DNA of 64,000 bases, from positions 83,715 through 147,714 of the forward strand of contig CAIYBN010000145.1 of NCBI GenBank assembly GCA_903924465.1, written 5' to 3'. Source of the DNA: an uncultured Myxococcales bacterium. Lineage in GTDB: Bacteria; Myxococcota_A; UBA9042. The notes under the pieces are model-generated. The model saw nothing but the letters and a program-made list of their open reading frames with translations, was not told the origin of the DNA and did no database searches. Position 1 is the stretch's first letter; each line of letters starts with the position of its first letter. Below, in pieces: positions 25,849 to 35,791 of the stretch. The position numbers and the translations under genes are program-made.

Positions 25849-26394
25849 TCAGGGCACTGGCGCAGCCGCATCGGGCCGCGGTTCGTAAACGAAGCGCGTG
25901 CCAGCGTGAATGCCCAGCTTGCCCGCAGTATGCGCCGTCAATTCGAGGACATAGCGGGAGTCCGCGCCCACCGATCGGTGATCTTCCGTCAGCGGTGGCA
26001 CGTTCTCGACGACACCCGCCACGCGCCAGTCGCGATCGATGAACACCATGTCCAAGGGGATGTAGGTGTTGCGCATGTAGAACACCCAGTCGTTGTCATA
26101 GGGCATGAAGAAGAGCATGCCGTGGTCGTCCGCCATCCGGTGACGGAACATCAGCCCTTGCTGACGTTCGCCATCCTTGCGCGCCAATTCCAGATCGATC
26201 GTCGGACTATTGGGACGGTCGGCGATGCGCATCACGCCGCGTCCTGCAAAATGTTCTATCTGTTCATGTTCTTGCGACTCGCGGCTCGCCGCCGTCGGTT
26301 GCGCGATCGTCGGTGGCACGTCCACAGTTGGCTCCACCGCAGCACGACTGCACGCGCACGCCGCGCACACGATCCAGCTGAGCGTCATGCGCAT
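25849..26394 (-). CDS. DUF192 family lipoprotein
   Basis: ELAR...RQQGLMFR...GMLFF...FYMRNTYIPLDMVFID...YVLEL..G pattern typical of DUF192. Confidence 0.88.
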   Translation of the reverse strand: MRMTLSWIVCAACACSRAAVEPTVDVPPTIAQPTAASRESQEHEQIEHFAGRGVMRIADRPNSPTIDLELARKDGERQQGLMFRHRMADDHGMLFFMPYDNDWVFYMRNTYIPLDMVFIDRDWRVAGVVENVPPLTEDHRSVGADSRYVLELTAHTAGKLGIHAGTRFVYEPRPDAAAPVP

Positions 26395-26945
26395 GGTGAC
26401 CTGCCGATCGACAACACGTCGACGCGCCGCTGCACCGCCGTCACGTTCGCTGGCGGCGTGGCGAGATCGTGAAAGTACGGCGCCAACTCGACGAATCGCG
26501 GATGTGCGAGCGTCAGGCCGAGGCCAACGCACAACTCAACGAGCCGCGCCTCAGCCTCCTCACGCACCGCGCGATCGTACCGACGGGCGAGCCCAACCAT
26601 CTGGCCGAGCACGACGCGCAACTGCCGGAACGGCTTTTCCTGCGCCAATGCTTGAATCACCAGCGCCTTGCCGCGACCCGGATCCAGCGACTGCGCCCAG
26701 TTCACCGCCAACGCGAACGCCTCATCGCTCTCCAGAAACGGCACCTCAAGCCAGCCATCCTCTTGCAACAACCGCAGCTCGAACGCCGCAGCGACGGCGG
26801 GCGAATTCTTGCGTCGCGGTGCGGAAAACAGCTCGCCCGTCACGGGATTCCAGTGCCCCATGCGCAACGGGCTCGCCTCAGCAAACAGCTGAACCAGCTT
26901 GGGCCAGTCGCCTTTGGCCACCGTCAAAGTCGCTTCTGATGGCAT
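26385..26945 (-). CDS. UPF0158-like protein
   Basis: 'WLEVPFLESDEAF...ALAQEKPFRQLRVVL' resembles the UPF0158 core. Confidence 0.55.
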   Translation of the reverse strand: MPSEATLTVAKGDWPKLVQLFAEASPLRMGHWNPVTGELFSAPRRKNSPAVAAAFELRLLQEDGWLEVPFLESDEAFALAVNWAQSLDPGRGKALVIQALAQEKPFRQLRVVLGQMVGLARRYDRAVREEAEARLVELCVGLGLTLAHPRFVELAPYFHDLATPPANVTAVQRRVDVLSIGRSPCA

Positions 26946-27108
26946 CTCAATTCCCCAGGGCGGCCGTGCGGCTCGTCTGCCATCGCCGCCCCATGGGGCC
27001 AAAGTACCAGCTTCTCCGGACGAGCGCGAGAACCCACAAAGAACGGAGCGTCACAAAAACTTTTGAACCTTCCTGGAAACTGAGGCAACCCAACGACCGT
27101 CCCCTTCG

Positions 27109-27123
27109 AACCGACGGTCGGTT
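27109..27123. promoter_or_regulatory. Perfect dyad AACCGAC-G-GTCGGTT
   Basis: 7-bp inverted repeat with a 1-nt spacer in the divergent intergenic region. Confidence 0.4.
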
Positions 27124-27183
27124 TGACAGGGGAACAAGGACACGGCGTTCGTCTCTTCGCGAGATCGACAAAATGTGTCGATG

Positions 27184-27199
27184 TGTGAACTTCTTCACG
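27184..27199. promoter_or_regulatory. CRP/FNR- or Rex-type operator
   Basis: TGTGA-ACTTCT-TCACG matches TGTGA-N6-TCACA at 9/10 and also the TGTGAA-N4-TTCAC core; centred about 74 bp upstream of the predicted start site. Confidence 0.5.
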
Positions 27200-27229
27200 C
27201 GTCACAGCGACCAAATGCACACCTGAGAG

Positions 27230-27259
27230 TTGACAGGCAGCAGGAGTGAGCCATACAGT
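27230..27259 (+). promoter_or_regulatory. sigma70 promoter of the polysaccharide-export cluster
   Basis: TTGACA(27230-27235)-N18-TACAGT(27254-27259). Confidence 0.6.
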
Positions 27260-27459: not shown

Positions 27460-28011
27460 ATGAAGCGCCAGTACCTTGCCATGATGATCGGAGCGTGCTG
27501 CTTGATCGTTGCGGGTCGCGTGGTCGCCGAAGATGCGCCGCCGGCCGATCCTTCCTCGATTGATTCGAAAATGCAGCAGTCGAAGGCGTTTATCGACAAG
27601 ATGAGCGCCATGGTCAGCGAAGGCTTTGCCGAGCTCGAAGATGCGCGCAAGTCGCAGAACATCAACCGCGTCAACTGCGTGAACGACGCATTGACGACGA
27701 TGAACGGCCTGAAGCGCTTGGCGGACAGCAACTTCACCGCGCTGCAAGAATGCGCGTCCCGTCGCGACGGCGACTGCGCGGAACACGAATACGTGAAAGT
27801 GTCGATCGCCTTCAACAAGGCGGAAGAACTGCAAGGCCAGCTCAAGGGCTGCGGTGGTCCTGCTGTGGACGGTACGATCGACGGTCGGCCGTACATCGAA
27901 AAGAACGTGGACAAGGACATGCCGGAAATCAACCCGACCGCTGGTCTCACCGACCTGGCGCCGCCGATTGAATATCCGCCGTCCGCGAGCCCATTTTTGG
28001 CCCATCCATAG
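27460..28011 (+). CDS. Small secreted alpha-helical Cys-containing protein, first gene of the export cluster
   Basis: Signal peptide; amphipathic helices with 'RVNCVND', 'ECASRRDGDC', 'LKGCGG'; Pro-rich tail; 27 nt before the beta-barrel gene. Confidence 0.75.
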   Translation: MKRQYLAMMIGACCLIVAGRVVAEDAPPADPSSIDSKMQQSKAFIDKMSAMVSEGFAELEDARKSQNINRVNCVNDALTTMNGLKRLADSNFTALQECASRRDGDCAEHEYVKVSIAFNKAEELQGQLKGCGGPAVDGTIDGRPYIEKNVDKDMPEINPTAGLTDLAPPIEYPPSASPFLAHP

Positions 28012-28038
28012 CGCTCCCGCATCCGAGGAAGTCTGAAC

Positions 28039-29397
28039 GTGCTTAAGATTCAACCGACATCCTGCCGAACGCTTGGACGCTCGCTGGCGGTTTTGGTCGC
28101 GGCGGTCGTCCTCGGACTTCCGGCCGCGCCGGTCTTTGCCCAGTCGTCGGAAATGACGTTGCCCTCGATCGCCAAAGATCGCGGACTTCGGAGCGGCGAT
28201 TTTCTGCTGAGGCCGTCGGTCACCGTGACCGGCCATTACGACACCAACATCTTCAATGCCAGCCCGCAAGAAGCGCTGATCAACCCAATCCGCGGCGCGG
28301 CGTCGATTCGTGTACTGCCGAAGCTGTCGTTGCAGAACGACCTGACCGGCAACACGGTGTTCAACTTCGCCGCCGCTGGCGATGGCCGCGTCTACGTCTC
28401 TGGCGACGCTGCGGTCAAGAATCTCAACAACTTTGGTGGCAGTTCCAGTCTGGACGTCACGTTCGGTCAGCGCAAGCCGATCGCATTTACGTTGTTCGAC
28501 TTCTTCAACCGGTCCCTGCGTGCCAACAACTGGGAAACGCTGCAGACTTTGAACCGCAACTCCAACGATGTCGGTGGTCGCGTTGAATTCCATCCGGGTG
28601 ACACGCCCGAGCGTCGGCCGTTCAACATCGCGTTGTCGGGCGCCTACTCGATCGACCGGTTTGAGGACTACGGCGGGTTCAACACCAATACCATCCGCAC
28701 CCGTTTGAATGGCTCCTGGCGCTTCCTGCCCAAGACCGCCGCCTATCTTGACGCCACTTGGGACTTCCGGACGTTCACGGACAGCTATCTTCAAGATCAC
28801 AATTTGACTTACAATTCCAAGCCGTTTCGGGCACGCGGCGGCATTTCAGGCGCCATCACCAAGCGCATCAGCTTCGACCTCTCGGCAGGCTGGGGCATGT
28901 CGTTGCTCAGCTCGGCCGTGACGCCCGGTTTCAGTTCGTTCCTCGCCGGCGCGTCCTTTGGTTTTCGGCCGACGGAAACAACGCGCCTGACCGTGGGTTA
29001 CACGCATGACATGCGCGACGCCTACTTGGGCGGTTTTGCAGATGTGCACCGCTTCGGCTTCTTGGGCAAGCAACGCTTTGGCACGATCATCGATGTGTCC
29101 GCGAGCTTTGGCGCATCGTACCTGAAGTTCGGTGCCGCGCAGGCGACGTACGGCGTGAGCGTGCTCGGTGCCAACGCCGTTGCGGGGATGCCTGGCTACT
29201 TCCAGCGGCACGATTGGCAGCTCGACGGCAACCTGACGGTGATGTTCGAGGTCACGCGCTACGTGGGCTTGTCGCTTGGCTACAACCTGCGGTCCGTCAT
29301 TACGCCTTTCAAGCTGACGTCGAGCAATGCGCTGATTCTGGACGCAGGCGAGTACACGGCGCATGAGGTGTTTGCCTCGGTCATCGCTCGTTACTGA
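28039..29397 (+). CDS. Outer-membrane beta-barrel, Wzp/EpsX-like partner of the short OPX protein
   Basis: Signal peptide; 'LRPSVTVTGHYDTNIF' start typical of capsule-associated barrels; alternating strands; C-terminal 'FASVIARY'; adjacent to wza and wzc. Confidence 0.75.
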   Translation: MLKIQPTSCRTLGRSLAVLVAAVVLGLPAAPVFAQSSEMTLPSIAKDRGLRSGDFLLRPSVTVTGHYDTNIFNASPQEALINPIRGAASIRVLPKLSLQNDLTGNTVFNFAAAGDGRVYVSGDAAVKNLNNFGGSSSLDVTFGQRKPIAFTLFDFFNRSLRANNWETLQTLNRNSNDVGGRVEFHPGDTPERRPFNIALSGAYSIDRFEDYGGFNTNTIRTRLNGSWRFLPKTAAYLDATWDFRTFTDSYLQDHNLTYNSKPFRARGGISGAITKRISFDLSAGWGMSLLSSAVTPGFSSFLAGASFGFRPTETTRLTVGYTHDMRDAYLGGFADVHRFGFLGKQRFGTIIDVSASFGASYLKFGAAQATYGVSVLGANAVAGMPGYFQRHDWQLDGNLTVMFEVTRYVGLSLGYNLRSVITPFKLTSSNALILDAGEYTAHEVFASVIARY

Positions 29398-29712
29398 GCG
29401 CCCGACGCTGATCGCCGCGTGCAATTCTTTTCACACCACCTTCGGGGCCGTTGGGGCGAAATTGATCCTCGGCGCATGGCATGGCAACCAAACCGCCCTG
29501 CCTGAGATTCGCGAGAATCTGAACGCTGCGCCAAACTAGCCGTGTTGCCGCCCACACCTCGGGCTGGACGTGTTCCCTGGAGCCCCGACCCGATGCCCGC
29601 AGTTCCCCATCGACAACCCGCTGACAGTGCGATCCGGAAAACCCGATCCGCGCTGTTGCTGTTGGCCGGGTCGACAATTCGTGCCTTTGGCGCTGCGCGG
29701 CTCGAACGCGGC

Positions 29713-30318
29713 ATGCACGCTGGACCGTGGGTCGGTGTGCTGCTGCTGGCGCTGCTGGTCGGTGGCTGCTCGGCGACTGCGAATGCCGGTTACAGCGACG
29801 TGCATGTGGACGTGCGCTCCGCGATCCAGGCGGCAAGTTTGGGACCTGGCGATGAATTTGACGTGCGTGTGTACGAGGAACCGGCGCTTTCGGGCGTGCA
29901 CACCGTCTCGCCCACCGGTCAGATCGACTACCCGCTGATCGGCACCGTGACGGTTGAAGGCCTCGTGGCGTCGCAGGTCGCCGCGTTGTTGCGGCAAAAG
30001 CTGGCGCAAGGCTACCTCAAGCACCCGTATGTTACCGTCCAGGTCAAGACGCTGAGTTCCAAGAAGATTTTCGTGCTCGGCGAAGTCAAGACGCCGGGCC
30101 GGTTTGCCTACGCCGACAACATGACGATCGTCGAAGCCGTGACGTTGGCCGGCGGCTTTGCCGCGATGGCCGAGCGCAATTACGCGATCGTCACGCGCAT
30201 GGACGCGACCGGTGAGCGGCGCATTCCGGTGCCGGTCGACAAAATCATGCAAGGGCTGGCGGTCAATTTTCAGGTCCAGCCCGGCGACATCATCTACGTA
30301 CCGGAGACCATCCTGTGA
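29713..30318 (+). CDS. wza: Polysaccharide export protein, short periplasmic OPX type
   Basis: LVGG-C lipobox; LGPGDEFDVRVYEE...GQIDYPLIG (Poly_export), IFVLGEVKTPG, N...QPGDIIYVPE (SLBB). Ends 'VPETIL' with no outer-membrane helix. Confidence 0.88.
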   Translation: MHAGPWVGVLLLALLVGGCSATANAGYSDVHVDVRSAIQAASLGPGDEFDVRVYEEPALSGVHTVSPTGQIDYPLIGTVTVEGLVASQVAALLRQKLAQGYLKHPYVTVQVKTLSSKKIFVLGEVKTPGRFAYADNMTIVEAVTLAGGFAAMAERNYAIVTRMDATGERRIPVPVDKIMQGLAVNFQVQPGDIIYVPETIL

Positions 30319-32663
30319 CGGCGCCACTTCACGTATCCAATCAGGCGGTTCCAGGCGAACAGCCGGTTGACGCCATGGTCGCCCGGTTACGCGACATTCT
30401 GGGGCGCCGCCGCTGGTGGTTCCTCGTCACGACCGCGCTCGTCTTCGCCGCCGCCATCGTCTTCGTGCGCCATCAGCGACCGATCTTCCGCGCAACCGGC
30501 ACGCTGCAAATCGATGGCGCGCCGCCCAAAGTTCTGGGCGACATGAGTGAGGTCTACGGCCTTGGCGCGGCAGGTTCAAGCAACGGTATGCGCCAGTACT
30601 ATCGGGCACAGCAGTCGATCCTGCAGTCGCGCGACTTGGCCGCTATGGTGGTCAGCCGTCTGGCGTTGAGTCACGACGAACGGTTTTTTGGCTTTGCGTA
30701 TGCCGAGAAGCCGCTCTCCACGGCGCAAAAAGAGTCGATCATGGCCAACGCGGACGCGGTCGGCATGATGGCCAGCCGGGTTCTTGTCGAAATGACCGAA
30801 GACACGCTGATTGCCAAGATTTCCGTGGAAGACCCCGATCCCGAGTTTGCCCGCGACCTCGCAAACGCCGTGATGGCGGCCTATAAAGACCGCAATATCA
30901 ATAACAAACGGCGGGTCGTGCAGGATGCGTATGCGGATTTGCGCGCGATGCGCAAGAAGTTGGAAGAGACCAAGACGCAGTCGCAGCAGGCGCAGTACGA
31001 CTTTGAGCGCCAGCACGATCTGAGCGACAACCGTCGATTGGCCGTGAACGAGCGCAATCTGGAACTAAATCGTGCGCTCCGGGAAGTGCATGGCATCCGG
31101 CTCAAGGCGGAACTCGATGTCGGCCAGCTCAAAAAGGCCAAAGGCGTCCACGATATCTTCTCGATTTCCGCACCCAGCCTGATGCGCGATGGCTTGGTCG
31201 GCGAATTGAAGCGGCGCTGGCTTGAACTGGGCACCAAACGGCGCGAACTGGCCGCGACGTATCTGGAGAAGCACCCGCGCCTGGAAGCGATTGATCAGCA
31301 GATGAATCAGCTGGAATCGCTGGCGGTCCGCCATGCGGCGACGATGCTGGACTCCGCGATGCAGGGGCTGGCCGCTGCGCGCGTGGAAGAAGAAGACATC
31401 ATGCAGCAGTTGAAGGTGACCAAGGAGGAGGACGGGGAAATTCGTCAGACCAAGCTGGAACACGACAAACTGGTGGCGAAGTCTGAAGAAGACAAGATGT
31501 TCTACGAGAAGGTCGCGAAGCGCTACGCGGAGACGGACCTGACCAAGGACGTGGGCGTGAACAACGTGTCGGTGCTCGACGCCGCCGTGACGCCGCATGG
31601 GCCAGTCAGGCCGAACATGCAGTTGAGCCTGGCGATCGGCATCCTGCTGGCCCTGGTGATGGGCGTCGTGGCAGCGCTGATCGCGGAAATGCTGGACAAC
31701 ACGATTCAGGGACGTGCGGACGTCGAACGCATTCACAACCTGCCGTATCTGGGCGCGATTCCGACTTTCGAACCTGGCGACGTGGCAGAGGGCAAGGAAC
31801 TGCCCGGGAACGTCAACGACCTGTACGTCTACTACCGGCCGAACTCGCGCGTCGCTGAAGCGGCCCGGTCGGTGCGCACGAACCTGCTCTTCATGCGCCC
31901 GGACAAGCCCCTCCACACGCTGCTGGTGTCCTCTGCGCATCCGCGCGAAGGCAAGACGTCGACCTCCGCAACCCTGGCGATCACGCTGGCGGCGGCTTCC
32001 GGACGTTGCATCCTCATCGACACGGACTTGCGCAAGCCGCGTTTGCACAAGGTCTTTGGCGTGCCCAATGTCGGCGGCGTGACGGGCTACATCTTGTCGC
32101 GCGAGCCCGTGACCAACTTTGTCCAGCCGACCCAAGTGCCGGGCCTGGATTTCATGCCGTGCGGCGCGCTGCCGCCCAATCCATCCGAGATCCTGCACAC
32201 CGAGCGCTTCAAGGCGATGGTCGAGGAACTCAAACAGCACTACACGGCCGTCGTGTTTGACTCGCCGCCGATTGAGATTGTGTCCGATGCCCTGGTGATC
32301 GCGGCGCTGGTCGATGGTGTTGTGCTTGTGGCACACACGGCCAAGTCGCGGCACGACTGGGTGGCATCCGCCGTTGCACACTTGCGCAGCGTCAATGCAC
32401 CGCTGATGGGCATCGTGCTGTCGCGCACGGGAATTCAGGGCGTCGGGTACGGCTATTACTATGGCAAAGGCTACCGCAAGGGCGGCGCGTACCGGGCGCG
32501 GTACCAGTACCAGTACCGCTATGGTGCCGAGGAAGAGCAGGACCAACTGGAAGCAGCCCACTTTGCCCAACCCGGCGGCGCGCGAATCGATCGCGGCGAC
32601 TCCGGCGGCAATGCCGCGTTTGCGCCTCCGCCTGTCGATCACGAAGATCCGCCGGATGTGTAA
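30315..32663 (+). CDS. wzc: Polysaccharide co-polymerase with a fused BY tyrosine kinase
   Basis: Two TMs flanking a coiled-coil periplasmic region; YLEKHP; AEAARSVRTNL; Walker A PREGKT, IDTDLRKP, FDSPP; C-terminal Tyr cluster. Confidence 0.92.
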   Translation: MTAPLHVSNQAVPGEQPVDAMVARLRDILGRRRWWFLVTTALVFAAAIVFVRHQRPIFRATGTLQIDGAPPKVLGDMSEVYGLGAAGSSNGMRQYYRAQQSILQSRDLAAMVVSRLALSHDERFFGFAYAEKPLSTAQKESIMANADAVGMMASRVLVEMTEDTLIAKISVEDPDPEFARDLANAVMAAYKDRNINNKRRVVQDAYADLRAMRKKLEETKTQSQQAQYDFERQHDLSDNRRLAVNERNLELNRALREVHGIRLKAELDVGQLKKAKGVHDIFSISAPSLMRDGLVGELKRRWLELGTKRRELAATYLEKHPRLEAIDQQMNQLESLAVRHAATMLDSAMQGLAAARVEEEDIMQQLKVTKEEDGEIRQTKLEHDKLVAKSEEDKMFYEKVAKRYAETDLTKDVGVNNVSVLDAAVTPHGPVRPNMQLSLAIGILLALVMGVVAALIAEMLDNTIQGRADVERIHNLPYLGAIPTFEPGDVAEGKELPGNVNDLYVYYRPNSRVAEAARSVRTNLLFMRPDKPLHTLLVSSAHPREGKTSTSATLAITLAAASGRCILIDTDLRKPRLHKVFGVPNVGGVTGYILSREPVTNFVQPTQVPGLDFMPCGALPPNPSEILHTERFKAMVEELKQHYTAVVFDSPPIEIVSDALVIAALVDGVVLVAHTAKSRHDWVASAVAHLRSVNAPLMGIVLSRTGIQGVGYGYYYGKGYRKGGAYRARYQYQYRYGAEEEQDQLEAAHFAQPGGARIDRGDSGGNAAFAPPPVDHEDPPDV

Positions 32664-32810
32664 GCCTTTGCGGTTCAGGTTTGCGTAATCGTGAGTTGAC
32701 CTTGACCTCGGACGGTGTTTCGAGCCATCCTATTCCGCGCGGGAAAGCGCTCGCGTTTGCTCCGGCATGTCCGGTGTGTCGCAACACTGGGCGAAGCCGG
32801 AAGGTGGCGG

Positions 32811-34619
32811 ATGGACAAAGTTGTCGGCATCGATCTTGGAACGACCAACTCCTGCGTTTGCCTGTATGAAAGCGGTGTTGCGCACGTCATTCCGAACGCG
32901 GAAGGCTCCCGTACGACGCCTTCCATGGTGGCGTTTACACCAGACGGGCAGCGCTTGGTCGGCAACATCGCCAAACGCCAGGCGGTAGCCAATCCTCAGA
33001 ACACGGTTTTTGCGACGAAGCGGCTCATGGGTCGCAAATTCAAGACGCCAGAAGTGCAGCGGATGCAGATGACTGCGCCCTTCAAGATTGCCGCCAACGA
33101 CAACGGCGATGCGGCAGTCACGGTGCACGGCAAGCGGTACTCGCCGCCAGAAATCGGCGCGTTTGTGCTGCGTGCGCTCAAGGAGTCCGCGCAGGAATAC
33201 ACCGAAGCGACGATCAAGGATGCGGTTGTTGCGGTTCCCGCCTACTTTGACGACGCCCAGCGCCAAGCCACGCGCGATGCCGGTCGGCTGGCCGGCTTGA
33301 ACGTCCTGCGCATCATCAACGAACCGACGGCCGCCGCATTGGCGTATGGCATCGGCGCAGAATCGTCCGGCACCATCGCGGTCTACGACTTGGGCGGCGG
33401 CACGTTCGATATTTCCATCCTGGATTTCTCCGGCGGCGTGTTTCAAGTCAAAGCGACCCACGGCGACACGTTCCTGGGCGGTGAAGACATCGACGCGCGC
33501 CTGATGGACACGTTGATCGCGGACTTTCTCGCGGACACGAACATCGACGTGCGCAAGGATCCGGTCGCGCTGCAGCGCATGAAGGACGCCGCGGAGCGCG
33601 CCAAGATTGAGCTCTCGACTGTCGATGAAACCGAGATTTCCCTGCCATTTCTGACCGCGGATGCCTCCGGGCCCAAGCACCTGCGGCGACTGCTGCATCG
33701 CACGGAGCTTGAGGCGTTGACCGAAGATCTGGTGGTCCAGACCATCGCTCACTGTCAGGAAGCGCTGACCGGCGCCGGCGTCAGCATCGATCAGATTACC
33801 GACGTGCTGCTGGTCGGTGGCATGACCAAGATGCCGCTGGTGCAACGCACCGTCGCGGATTTCTTTGTACGTCAGCCCAACCGCAGCGTCAATCCGGACG
33901 AAGCAGTCGCGGTCGGCGCGGCGATCCAGGCGGCGATCCTGTCCGGCGATGTCGGCGAAGTCGTGCTTCTCGACGTGAACCCGCTGTCGCTCGGCATCGA
34001 GACGGCCGGCGGCGTGATGACCAAGCTGATTCCGCGCAACGTGACCGTGCCGGTGAGTGTGACGGAAATCTTCACGACTTCCGAGGACTACCAGCCGTTG
34101 GTCAACATCCACGTGCTGCAGGGTGAACGTCCGCTGGCAGCGGATAACACGAGCCTGGCGCGCTTTGAACTGGTTGGCATTCCACCAGCGCTGCGCGGCG
34201 TGCCGAAGATTGAGGTCACGTTCTCGATTGACGCCAACGGCATCCTGAGCGTTGACGCCCGCGACCTGGGCACCAAGAAAGAGCAGAGCCTGCGCGTGCG
34301 GGCGACGTCGGGCCTGACGGAACAGGCGATCGAGCGGATCCTGTCGGAAGCCGAGCAATACCAGGAATCCGATCGGCTGCATGTCGAGATGGCCGATTTG
34401 CGACGGCGTTTGGCGGGCCTGATCTACACCACGGAACGCTCGTTGGCCGAGAGTGCCAATTACTTGACCGAGTCAGAGCTGGCGCAAATCCGTGTGGATC
34501 TGGAAGAAGGTCGCCGGGCGACCGAAAGCGCCGATATGGCGCGCATGGCCAATGCGCTGCGTGAGTTGGAAAAGTCGGCATTTCGCATCACTGAGGTCAT
34601 GTACAAGGATTTGGCGTAG
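32811..34619 (+). CDS. dnaK: Hsp70/DnaK paralog with a short C-terminus
   Basis: GIDLGTTNS, TTPSMVAF, VPAYFDDAQRQATRDAG, NEPTAAALAYG, DLGGGTFDISIL, GDTFLGGEDID, LQGER. Lacks the acidic disordered tail. Confidence 0.93.
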   Translation: MDKVVGIDLGTTNSCVCLYESGVAHVIPNAEGSRTTPSMVAFTPDGQRLVGNIAKRQAVANPQNTVFATKRLMGRKFKTPEVQRMQMTAPFKIAANDNGDAAVTVHGKRYSPPEIGAFVLRALKESAQEYTEATIKDAVVAVPAYFDDAQRQATRDAGRLAGLNVLRIINEPTAAALAYGIGAESSGTIAVYDLGGGTFDISILDFSGGVFQVKATHGDTFLGGEDIDARLMDTLIADFLADTNIDVRKDPVALQRMKDAAERAKIELSTVDETEISLPFLTADASGPKHLRRLLHRTELEALTEDLVVQTIAHCQEALTGAGVSIDQITDVLLVGGMTKMPLVQRTVADFFVRQPNRSVNPDEAVAVGAAIQAAILSGDVGEVVLLDVNPLSLGIETAGGVMTKLIPRNVTVPVSVTEIFTTSEDYQPLVNIHVLQGERPLAADNTSLARFELVGIPPALRGVPKIEVTFSIDANGILSVDARDLGTKKEQSLRVRATSGLTEQAIERILSEAEQYQESDRLHVEMADLRRRLAGLIYTTERSLAESANYLTESELAQIRVDLEEGRRATESADMARMANALRELEKSAFRITEVMYKDLA

Positions 34620-34651
34620 CCGCTCCGCGCGCCAAACTTGCCCACGCCGCC

Positions 34652-35791
34652 ATGCCGACCCAACCGCACGAGACCCACACACCCGACCACTACCGCCTGC
34701 TCGGCGTAGCGCCGCGGGCGACCGACGCGCAGATCAAGGCGGCGTACCGCAAGCTTTCCCGCATTTACCATCCCGATGCCCAAGGTGGCAGTCCGGTGGC
34801 GGAGAACTGCTTCAAGCAGGTCGCGGGTGCCTACGCGGAACTGGCCGATCCCGCGCGGCGTCTGAACTACGATCGCATGCTGATGCTGCGGGACCCCATC
34901 CGCCTTGTCGACGATCCGCGGGCAGAGCGCGCGCTCGATGTGCTGGACACGGTGGTGACGCGGTTGCGCAAACGCCAGACCGCATTGCCGAGCGCCGGTC
35001 ACGGCCGCGACTTGCGGGTCGAACATCCGCTGCCGTTTGCCAAGGCGATGCTCGGCGGTATCGTGACAGTACGGGCGGAATTTGCGACGACTTGCACGCC
35101 GTGCCACGGTGCTGGCACGTCAGAGCCCGAACGCAATCCCGTCTGCCACGTTTGCCAGGGTCAGGGCACGCTGAAGACTGGTCTGCGCCGCCAGGACATG
35201 CGCTGCGCGTTCTGCAGCGGTCGCGGACTGCTCCTGCTGGCGCCATGCAAAGGGTGCGGCGGATCGGGGCAGGTGGCGGCGCATCAGGACGTGGACGTGC
35301 ACGTGCCCATGCGGTGTCGCGACGGCGCCCATTTGCGCGTGCGCGGCGGCGGTGAAGCGGCGCCAGGCGGCAAGGCCGGGGATCTGGTCGTTGTGGTACG
35401 CATCCAGCCGCACGCGTTCCTCCGCGCCGACGGCGACGACTTGGTTTGTCAGGTACCGCTCACGTGGAGCGAGGCTCTCGCAGGCGCGCGCGTGCCGGTG
35501 CCAACGTTGGGCGGCACGCACTGGCTGACGGTGCCGCCCGGAACGCCGCCCGGCCGAGAATTTCGCGTGGGCGGACACGGGCTGCCGGTCGGTTCGAGTC
35601 CCGCGGGCCCCGCCAAACGCGGCGCGTTGCGTGTCCAAGTGTTCATGGACATGCCCAGCGAACTCGCGCCATCACAGGTTGCAGCCGTGCTGGCTCTGGA
35701 AGCGCAATTGGGCGTGCAGCGGTTTGCCCGCGCCACAGCGTATCGCGCGGCCGTCGACGGCTTGGACACTGCGGACGGCCCGAGCAAATGA
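34652..35791 (+). CDS. dnaJ: DnaJ (class A architecture: J domain, four CxxCxGxG motifs, C-terminal domains)
   Basis: DHYRLLGV...YHPD; CTPCHGAG, CHVCQGQG, CAFCSGRG, CKGCGGSG; GDLVVVV..HAFLRADGDDL. Confidence 0.9.
   Translation: MPTQPHETHTPDHYRLLGVAPRATDAQIKAAYRKLSRIYHPDAQGGSPVAENCFKQVAGAYAELADPARRLNYDRMLMLRDPIRLVDDPRAERALDVLDTVVTRLRKRQTALPSAGHGRDLRVEHPLPFAKAMLGGIVTVRAEFATTCTPCHGAGTSEPERNPVCHVCQGQGTLKTGLRRQDMRCAFCSGRGLLLLAPCKGCGGSGQVAAHQDVDVHVPMRCRDGAHLRVRGGGEAAPGGKAGDLVVVVRIQPHAFLRADGDDLVCQVPLTWSEALAGARVPVPTLGGTHWLTVPPGTPPGREFRVGGHGLPVGSSPAGPAKRGALRVQVFMDMPSELAPSQVAAVLALEAQLGVQRFARATAYRAAVDGLDTADGPSK

Follow-up and report, generated by a model that had tools for sequence, protein, structure and literature searches.

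A small secreted helical protein as a putative fourth part of a WzcB/WzaB/WzpB-type polysaccharide exporter in myxobacteria

The DNA analysed here (the window) comprises 64,000 nucleotides (nt) from an uncultured Myxococcales bacterium (GTDB lineage Bacteria; Myxococcota_A; UBA9042; GenBank assembly GCA_903924465.1, contig CAIYBN010000145.1, positions 83,715 to 147,714 of the forward strand). It contains a polysaccharide export module of four co-directional genes on the + strand. They encode a small secreted helical protein, an outer-membrane beta-barrel, a short OPX protein (outer-membrane polysaccharide export) without an outer-membrane helix, and a Wzc protein with a fused kinase. An earlier reading of the letters alone (the original prediction) had proposed exactly this order, and all four open reading frames (ORFs) are found at the positions given in Table 1, as judged from the ORF list and the translations. 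The first protein, of 183 residues, and its MXAN_1917-like family are named FAM here. FAM is likely a fourth part of an export machine so far described as three-part. Genetically, to judge from gene order, it is an obligate partner of the WzpB-type porin of the Wzx/Wzy pathway of the biosurfactant polysaccharide (BPS) type. The tripartite BPS exporter itself was already known; newly seen here is the linkage of FAM to a TonB_C-containing GltG-like gene of the cluster 'G4'.

The barrel matches Pfam BBP2_2 at 3.8e-12, and its AlphaFold model has 18 long strands with predicted local distance difference test (pLDDT) values >90. AlgE structures are the best fold matches (Foldseek, E 5e-9). The barrel matches Myxococcus WzpB at 1.8e-15 (phmmer), a profile from at least 20 relatives also matches strongly, and the C-terminus ...ARY resembles the beta-signal of outer-membrane proteins. 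Since the fold, the homology to WzpB and the adjacency to an OPX gene all fit, the barrel is assigned as a Wzp-type polysaccharide porin.

The OPX protein contains PF02563 Poly_export (9.9e-21) and SLBB_2 (9.1e-10) domains. Its chain ends 2 residues past SLBB, and a Pfam scan found no Wza_C outer-membrane helix. The start is most plausibly Met58 of the long ORF (nt 29713), which gives 201 residues with the lipobox LLVGG-C, read as MHAGPWVGVLLLALLVGG-C in the translation; the protein is thus presumably lipidated. Its best PDB relative is 9N9A (E 1.3e-40), identified as M. xanthus WzaB in the depositors' paper, and Wza structures reach only ~1e-15. Consequently, with an OPX protein closest to WzaB, the module is taken as a BPS-type WzcB/WzaB/WzpB exporter. 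An assignment of the OPX protein as EpsY/WzaX was ruled out, since it scores 66.6 bits against the NCBIfam EpsY equivalog with a cut-off of 320. The OPX C-terminus is VPETIL and its counterpart in WzaB is VPESFF, of which the terminal Phe203-Phe204 docks on the porin in the 2026 mechanistic model (PMC12819527). Oligomerisation of WzaB needs N-terminal lipidation (PMC12819527). Two hydrophobic residues terminate the chain in 48/50 relatives compared, which suggests that the published Phe-Phe docking motif generalises to a hydrophobic dipeptide in the wider family. At 50 loci, the OPX C-termini beside FAM and barrel nearly always read VPE[ST] followed by FF, IL, VL, LL, WL, VF, AF or IY.

Wzc carries the Pfam domains Wzz (PF02706) and GNVR (PF13807) and scores 158.6 bits for the tyrosine autokinase family TIGR01007 (cut-off 108). 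Its tail has a tyrosine cluster, YGYYYGKGY...YQYQYRYG, with ten Tyr. By domain content it is a polysaccharide co-polymerase (PCP) of class PCP-2A with a fused bacterial tyrosine kinase. WzcB alone among the M. xanthus Wzc proteins is a PCP-2A with fused kinase; WzcX and WzcS are not.

The tripartite WzcB-WzaB-WzpB machine has been described in mechanistic papers of 2022 and 2026 (Saidi et al. PMC9603273; Mellouk et al. PMC12819527), the latter naming the BPS machinery of M. xanthus the 'Snap-Flex Funnel'. The window shares with it a lipoprotein OPX without outer-membrane helix, a hydrophobic C-terminal dipeptide, a homologous barrel, a PCP-2A Wzc and the separation of export genes from synthesis genes. 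The two differ in that wzc is contiguous with wzp and wza in the window, as reported for Sandaracinus, whereas wzc of M. xanthus lies ~1 Mb away. In the alignment, the window OPX protein ends in IL rather than in the FF of WzaB and has K-H in place of the R106-R107 motif. The conserved upstream gene has no place in the published BPS model, which consists of three parts.

The FAM gene is genuine, and its product is evidently exported by the Sec pathway, presumably to the periplasm. The family sequences show a clear purifying pattern of conservation, and in all aligned members a hydrophobic N-terminus is followed by an AxA/AQ site. A lipoprotein assignment, suggested by the N-terminal IGAC-C, was rejected because this Cys is kept only in close relatives and an AxA-type site follows. 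No Pfam or NCBIfam family was matched by the window protein, and Pfam was searched in vain also with 50 aligned relatives. A profile search found no sequence relative in the PDB, and a Foldseek comparison of the fold with the PDB gave nothing below E 0.05, with generic helical bundles only. The AlphaFold2 model from a 50-row alignment has a mean pLDDT of 88 and shows helices at residues 31-64, 68-100 and 104-131 (pLDDT 93-98) besides the helix of the signal peptide. The original prediction had counted about four amphipathic helices; the model has three, and the supposed fourth is the signal peptide. The bundle segment spans 99-102 residues in 50/50 members. Two cysteines noted earlier as a possible staple of the bundle, C73 in an NCVN motif and C131 in a GC motif, are indeed nearly invariant: they are 58 residues apart in 47/50 members and both missing in the remaining 3. 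Covariation and helix topology suggest that they probably form a disulfide that joins the beginning of helix 2 to the end of helix 3.

The Pro-rich tail claimed for the window protein is a property of the whole family. Residues 132-183 have no predicted secondary structure (pLDDT 62-83) and are presumably flexible. Among the members, tail length varies from 44 to 77 residues; the tail is net negative in 49/50 (mean charge -7.2) and contains ~7 Pro per 50 residues. The tail of the window protein contains 10 Pro at a net charge of -5; its last residues are ...YPPSASPFLAHP. The family alignment shows a conserved tail block, [FY]xG[DE]Tx[VI]x[VT]x[IV]DPx[IL]PxxDP, and a conserved C-terminal motif, (E/R)PPxASP[F/Y].

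Table 1. Positions of the export module and of the parts of FAM in the window
Feature	Position	Strand	Basis
Candidate sigma-70-like promoter TTGACA-18-TACAGT, 5' of the FAM gene	27230..27259	+	10/12 consensus positions; consensus match only, ~1 such site expected in the region from shuffled sequence
FAM gene, 183-aa secreted protein, first in module	27460..28011	+	ORF and translation
FAM Sec signal peptide, residues 1-23, predicted cleavage VVA|ED	27460..27528	+	translation
FAM three-helix bundle, residues 31-131, with Cys73 and Cys131	27550..27852	+	AlphaFold2
FAM acidic Pro-rich tail, residues 132-183	27853..28008	+	AlphaFold2, alignment
WzpB-type 18-stranded outer-membrane beta-barrel, 452 aa	28039..29397	+	BBP2_2, AlphaFold
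Class-3 OPX lipoprotein, WzaB-type, 201 aa	29713..30318 (long ORF from 29542)	+	Poly_export and SLBB
PCP-2A Wzc with fused BY-kinase, 782 aa	30315..32663	+	Wzz, GNVR, TIGR01007

Close homologs of FAM in public data (n=45) are all annotated as hypothetical. They stem from freshwater 'uncultured Myxococcales' metagenome-assembled genomes (MAGs) that carry the window's whole neighbourhood, and hence do not count as independent evidence. The titles of several public MAG records that contain this myxobacterial locus read 'Klebsiella pneumoniae' or 'uncultured Enterobacteriaceae'; these records look mislabelled. At E<1e-3 the wider family counts 651 cluster representatives (clustering at 50% identity), to which another word-based protein search, made with the alignment of distant members, contributed nothing further. 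In the phylum, FAM was detected in 280/401 sampled genomes and 183/255 genera, almost always as a single copy; the figure of 280 is an undercount, because divergent homologs are missed by the hidden Markov model (HMM). The sample apparently lacks Myxococcaceae, the best identity to M. xanthus WzaB being 61%, and a Myxococcus genome was located via the exact WzaB protein instead.

A survey of gene neighbourhoods had been named beforehand as a test of the original prediction. Its outcome speaks strongly for that prediction: the genes of FAM homologs always lie right in front of a Wzp-type barrel gene, mostly with a short OPX gene behind it. In all of 93 loci and in the window, from ~25 families, the primary FAM copy lies directly 5' of the barrel gene on the same strand; Myxococcus and Stigmatella are among these genomes. 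At loci from distant families, FAM, barrel and OPX genes follow each other on one strand in 20/20 cases. Ten further families all have FAM and then the barrel, six of them without an OPX gene within 9 kb. Since these six families keep FAM and barrel without a nearby OPX gene, the tightest link of FAM is to the barrel. That the gene order recurs unchanged in all the related loci examined goes far beyond what chance would produce. Three families have a WzaB-like OPX protein and no match to the FAM HMM. At the same position they encode a secreted helical protein of ~210 residues, which is a remote FAM homolog (hhalign probability 94%, E 9e-8).

In Myxococcus, a gene for 187 residues lies 5' of wzpB and wzaB and matches the FAM HMM at 8.9e-53 and the window protein at 4e-20. 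The order FAM, WzpB, WzaB corresponds to MXAN_1917, 1916 and 1915. The published BPS cluster table continues with MXAN_1914 (inositol monophosphatase) and MXAN_1913 (DsbE-like), and lists MXAN_1917 at its edge as 'hypothetical protein' (Islam et al. 2020, PMC7310880, supplementary file 4). Because the Myxococcus locus matches this table gene for gene, MXAN_1917 is the ortholog of the window's FAM. Both proteins share the position 5' of wzpB, the Cys pair and the PPPASP tail; they differ in that identity is ~28% and the tail ends in PVR in MXAN_1917 but in PF in the window. Database labels of MXAN_1917 are hypothetical, with one UniRef entry 'Lipoprotein'; in the literature on these systems we found no function assigned to it and no mention in a main text. 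The Myxococcus genome has three Poly_export genes and one FAM gene, located beside wzpB. Thus, FAM goes specifically with the BPS-type module.

At loci from outside the window's family, FAM has a second neighbour. In 33/37 of them, a gene for a GltG-like protein of ~450-490 residues precedes the FAM gene on the same strand, by no more than 492 nt. Further upstream follow an ExbD homolog (~20 loci; identity confirmed), then a 91-residue GltF-like protein, a 489-residue GltE-like protein with tetratricopeptide repeats (TPR) and a large GltD-like TPR protein. The TonB_C domain of the GltG-like protein scores 29.5 bits in one locus (L097; cut-off 24.6) and 21.7 bits, just below the cut-off, in Myxococcus. 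The M. xanthus counterparts of these Glt-like genes carry the numbers MXAN_1919 to 1922. The gltD homolog of the uncharacterised cluster 'G4' is MXAN_1922, and for a polar mutant of it no defect in motility was reported on either hard or soft agar (Luciano et al. 2011, PMC3169522). As for the Agl-Glt and Agl-Nfs machines and 'G4' (PMC3169522; PMC3858216), gltD/E/F/G-like genes stand directly before FAM, wzpB and wzaB in most of the phylum, whereas the Glt and Nfs clusters have no FAM homolog and the window's family lacks the G4 adjacency. The linkage of G4, FAM, wzpB and wzaB does not seem to have been remarked in the literature on these systems. Since it is found in 33/37 loci, the ancestral order in the phylum was presumably the G4 Glt-like cluster, FAM, wzpB, wzaB and sometimes wzcB. 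In the 28 genomes of the window's family the G4-like genes are not adjacent, with GltG- and GltE-like genes on other contigs; this family, to judge from its gene order, has lost the linkage, and in the window itself no TonB-like gene adjoins the module. FAM, barrel, OPX and Wzc stay together there without G4, and hence FAM seems to be tied primarily to the exporter.

We consider it probable (roughly 0.6) that the WzpB-type porin has FAM as an accessory subunit in the periplasm. It would sit there on the porin; the helical bundle could form a cap or adaptor, and the acidic tail could bind to the cationic conduit of porin and OPX, at its periplasmic face or in its lumen. So placed, FAM could make the junction of OPX and porin more stable, gate it or couple it, and may affect export. 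It may be an adaptor, a plug or an assembly factor. Both the lumen of WzpB and the channel of WzaB are reportedly cationic (PMC9603273, PMC12819527). The affinity of sWzaB for WzpB is 9.5 uM in vitro (2026 model), and this weak binding leaves room for a stabilising or gating partner. The original prediction had put forward a fourth periplasmic component. This idea holds in so far as FAM is a conserved extra part which the three-part model does not explain and which accompanies one OPX/barrel pair in Myxococcus. Docking to the barrel, however, found no sign in the structure prediction described below.

There are precedents for such a subunit. The group-4 capsule operon of E. coli has the order gfcABCD-gfcE(wza)-etp-etk. 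Like the window, it combines small accessory periplasmic proteins or lipoproteins with an outer-membrane beta-barrel, Wza and Wzc. GfcB and GfcC bind the GfcD barrel, according to work cited in PMC9603273, and accessory proteins that bind the barrel of their pathway are thus known. Unlike FAM, GfcB and GfcC are beta-rich and show no relation in sequence or fold, and GfcE is a class-1 OPX protein with its own outer-membrane pore. In AlgK-AlgE, LptE-LptD, CsgE/CsgF-CsgG and the plugs of TonB-dependent transporters, an outer-membrane barrel has a small partner in the periplasm or lumen that assists, plugs or gates it. A three-helix bundle with an acidic tail occurs in none of these partners, and no homology was detected; the analogy is functional only. 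Two likenesses go with it: the window barrel folds most like AlgE, and the FAM gene in most cases comes directly behind that of a TonB_C protein.

The pairwise divergence of FAM and barrel is strongly correlated (r = 0.96, 52 non-redundant loci). Partial correlations are 0.75 for FAM and barrel given OPX, 0.27 for FAM and OPX given the barrel and 0.37 for barrel and OPX given FAM. Several points weigh against FAM as a porin subunit. Similar rates and saturation alone could yield these correlations, which are therefore suggestive only. For the fusion fold, FAM and barrel, which lie 27 nt apart in the same frame, were joined by reading TAG as Q; 16 further rows among 97 were paired and the rest unpaired. 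In this AlphaFold2 read-through fusion the barrel was confident, the pLDDT of the FAM tail fell from 62-83 to 30-69 and there was no strand pairing or sign of docking, in a weak test that used a monomer model with a tethered C-terminus and the barrel's signal peptide as linker and was judged from pLDDT. Complementation of wzpB and wzaB deletions and in-vitro binding of WzaB to WzpB work without added MXAN_1917, the chromosomal gene being still present in the complemented strains. Five extra FAM copies without barrel or OPX gene nearby (orphan paralogs) exist, all in the window's own family. Finally, the binding of FAM to the porin is itself something that we infer.

It is possible, if unlikely, that FAM is a dedicated biogenesis factor of the WzpB-type barrel, a periplasmic holdase or targeting protein outside the working translocon. 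AlgK for AlgE and LptE for LptD would be parallels, and the barrel's best fold match is AlgE. That the strictest linkage is to the barrel and not to the OPX gene, with six families keeping FAM and barrel only and the FAM gene immediately 5' of the barrel everywhere, would suit such a factor. A transient contact would also fit the lack of stable docking in the fusion model. However, WzpX and WzpS, Myxococcus barrels of the same fold, have no FAM, so that barrel folding as such does not require it. Moreover, recombinant WzpB refolds and binds WzaB in vitro (2026 model), and with its rigid bundle and its conserved C-terminal linear motif FAM resembles a docking module more than it does a holdase.

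A little less probable still is that FAM belongs to the Glt-like 'G4' envelope machine and provides the periplasmic link from the TonB_C domain of the GltG-like protein to the porin or to the exported polymer. The position of FAM within 492 nt of the GltG-like gene in 33/37 loci outside the window's family, preceded by ExbD/GltF/GltE/GltD-like genes with ExbD confirmed, points in this direction. Among these genes is MXAN_1922, the gltD homolog of the uncharacterised G4 cluster. The FAM tail block G[DE]Tx[VI]x[VT]x[IV]DP bears an apparent resemblance to a TonB box. There is also a precedent: the polymer that the Exo/MASC class-3 OPX system exports is acted on by the Nfs (G3) machine. With this paralogous machine serving Exo/MASC export, it is plausible that G4 pairs with a BPS-type exporter. 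On the other hand, the window's family (28 genomes) keeps FAM, barrel, OPX and Wzc together without adjacent G4-like genes, and the polar MXAN_1922 mutant has no reported motility defect. The three other GltG-containing clusters of Myxococcus likewise have no adjoining FAM, barrel or OPX homolog and no FAM match better than E 0.06. An assignment of FAM as a GltH/NfsH-like paralog of a Glt/Nfs component was rejected, since no homolog occurs in these three Myxococcus clusters.

A more specific proposal, which we regard as similarly doubtful, is that FAM is a trans-acting plug with a TonB box. Its tail would fill the cationic WzaB/WzpB conduit, and a strand of it would be gripped by the TonB_C domain of the G4 GltG-like protein. 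Driven by ExbB/D- or Agl-type motors, the proton-motive force would then open or clear the porin. If true, polysaccharide export across the outer membrane by BPS-type class-3 OPX systems would be energised and gated rather than passive, and the long-orphaned G4 Glt-like cluster would gain a function.

Very improbable is that FAM is no machine part at all, either cargo or a surface protein let out through the porin or together with it, or else a regulator in the periplasm that has nothing to do with export: the Sec signal without membrane anchor, the lack of a recognisable family and the orphan paralogs, one of them fused to a von Willebrand factor type A (vWA)-like domain, would allow it, but the invariant synteny with the barrel across the phylum, the single copy per genome and the fixed bundle length with conserved terminal motifs favour a structural partner.

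The three-part model of PCP, OPX and porin (January 2026) is probably incomplete for BPS-type systems. This is suggested by a protein that is as conserved as the porin, inseparable from it across the phylum and confined to one of three M. xanthus pathways. FAM could explain the weak in-vitro affinity of OPX and porin in the 2026 model. It could also explain how an 'ungated' periplasmic channel joined to a surface-gated porin is gated. The question can be addressed at once, since MXAN_1917 resides in a genetically tractable organism with established BPS phenotypes. In addition, the linkage to TonB_C, ExbD and Glt-like genes offers a lead on G4, whose function has been unknown since 2011.

Within the module, the FAM gene starts with ATG and has a GGAG ribosome-binding site 11-14 nt upstream. 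As originally predicted, 27 nt separate its stop (28011) from the GTG start of the barrel (28039), which has its own ribosome-binding site, GAGGAAG. Wzc also starts with GTG, overlapping the OPX stop by 4 nt. No terminator-like sites were found between the module genes in a sequence scan. The distance from the barrel stop to the likeliest OPX start (29398-29712) is 315 nt; it is 50-280 nt in orthologous loci and 0-90 nt in most other families.

The expected absence of adjacent wzx, wzy and glycosyltransferase genes was confirmed for ~8 kb around the module. The further claim that this is a stand-alone secretion module was only partly sustained. Synthesis genes are indeed not adjacent; they simply lie elsewhere, as in M. 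xanthus, and the single Bac_transf gene of the genome is on another contig (C120). In addition, FAM and barrel form the 3' end of a Glt-like/TonB-like cluster in most of the phylum, a linkage lost in the window's family. The module's OPX gene is the only Poly_export gene in the genome.

One of the orphan FAM paralogs (L094, G324:C348:1602-3518) has 639 residues and consists of the FAM bundle and half of the tail, fused to a vWA-like C-terminal region. The paralogs are basic, with a bundle charge of +10, and the primary copies are neutral.

Upstream, the module is flanked by a DUF192 gene on the opposite strand and by an uncharacterised gene for 349 residues. The latter (26177-27226) lies on the same strand, 234 nt upstream of FAM; it had no Pfam match here, and its orthologs carry a weak DUF483 record. 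Only the window's family keeps it here, in the place that the GltG-like gene has elsewhere. Downstream follow dnaK, dnaJ and a ThiL-like gene. The dnaK-dnaJ pair (32715-35791) stands directly 3' of the export module, both within the window's family and among further families of its class; in the latter it adjoins the OPX gene even without an intervening wzc (loci L071 and L072).

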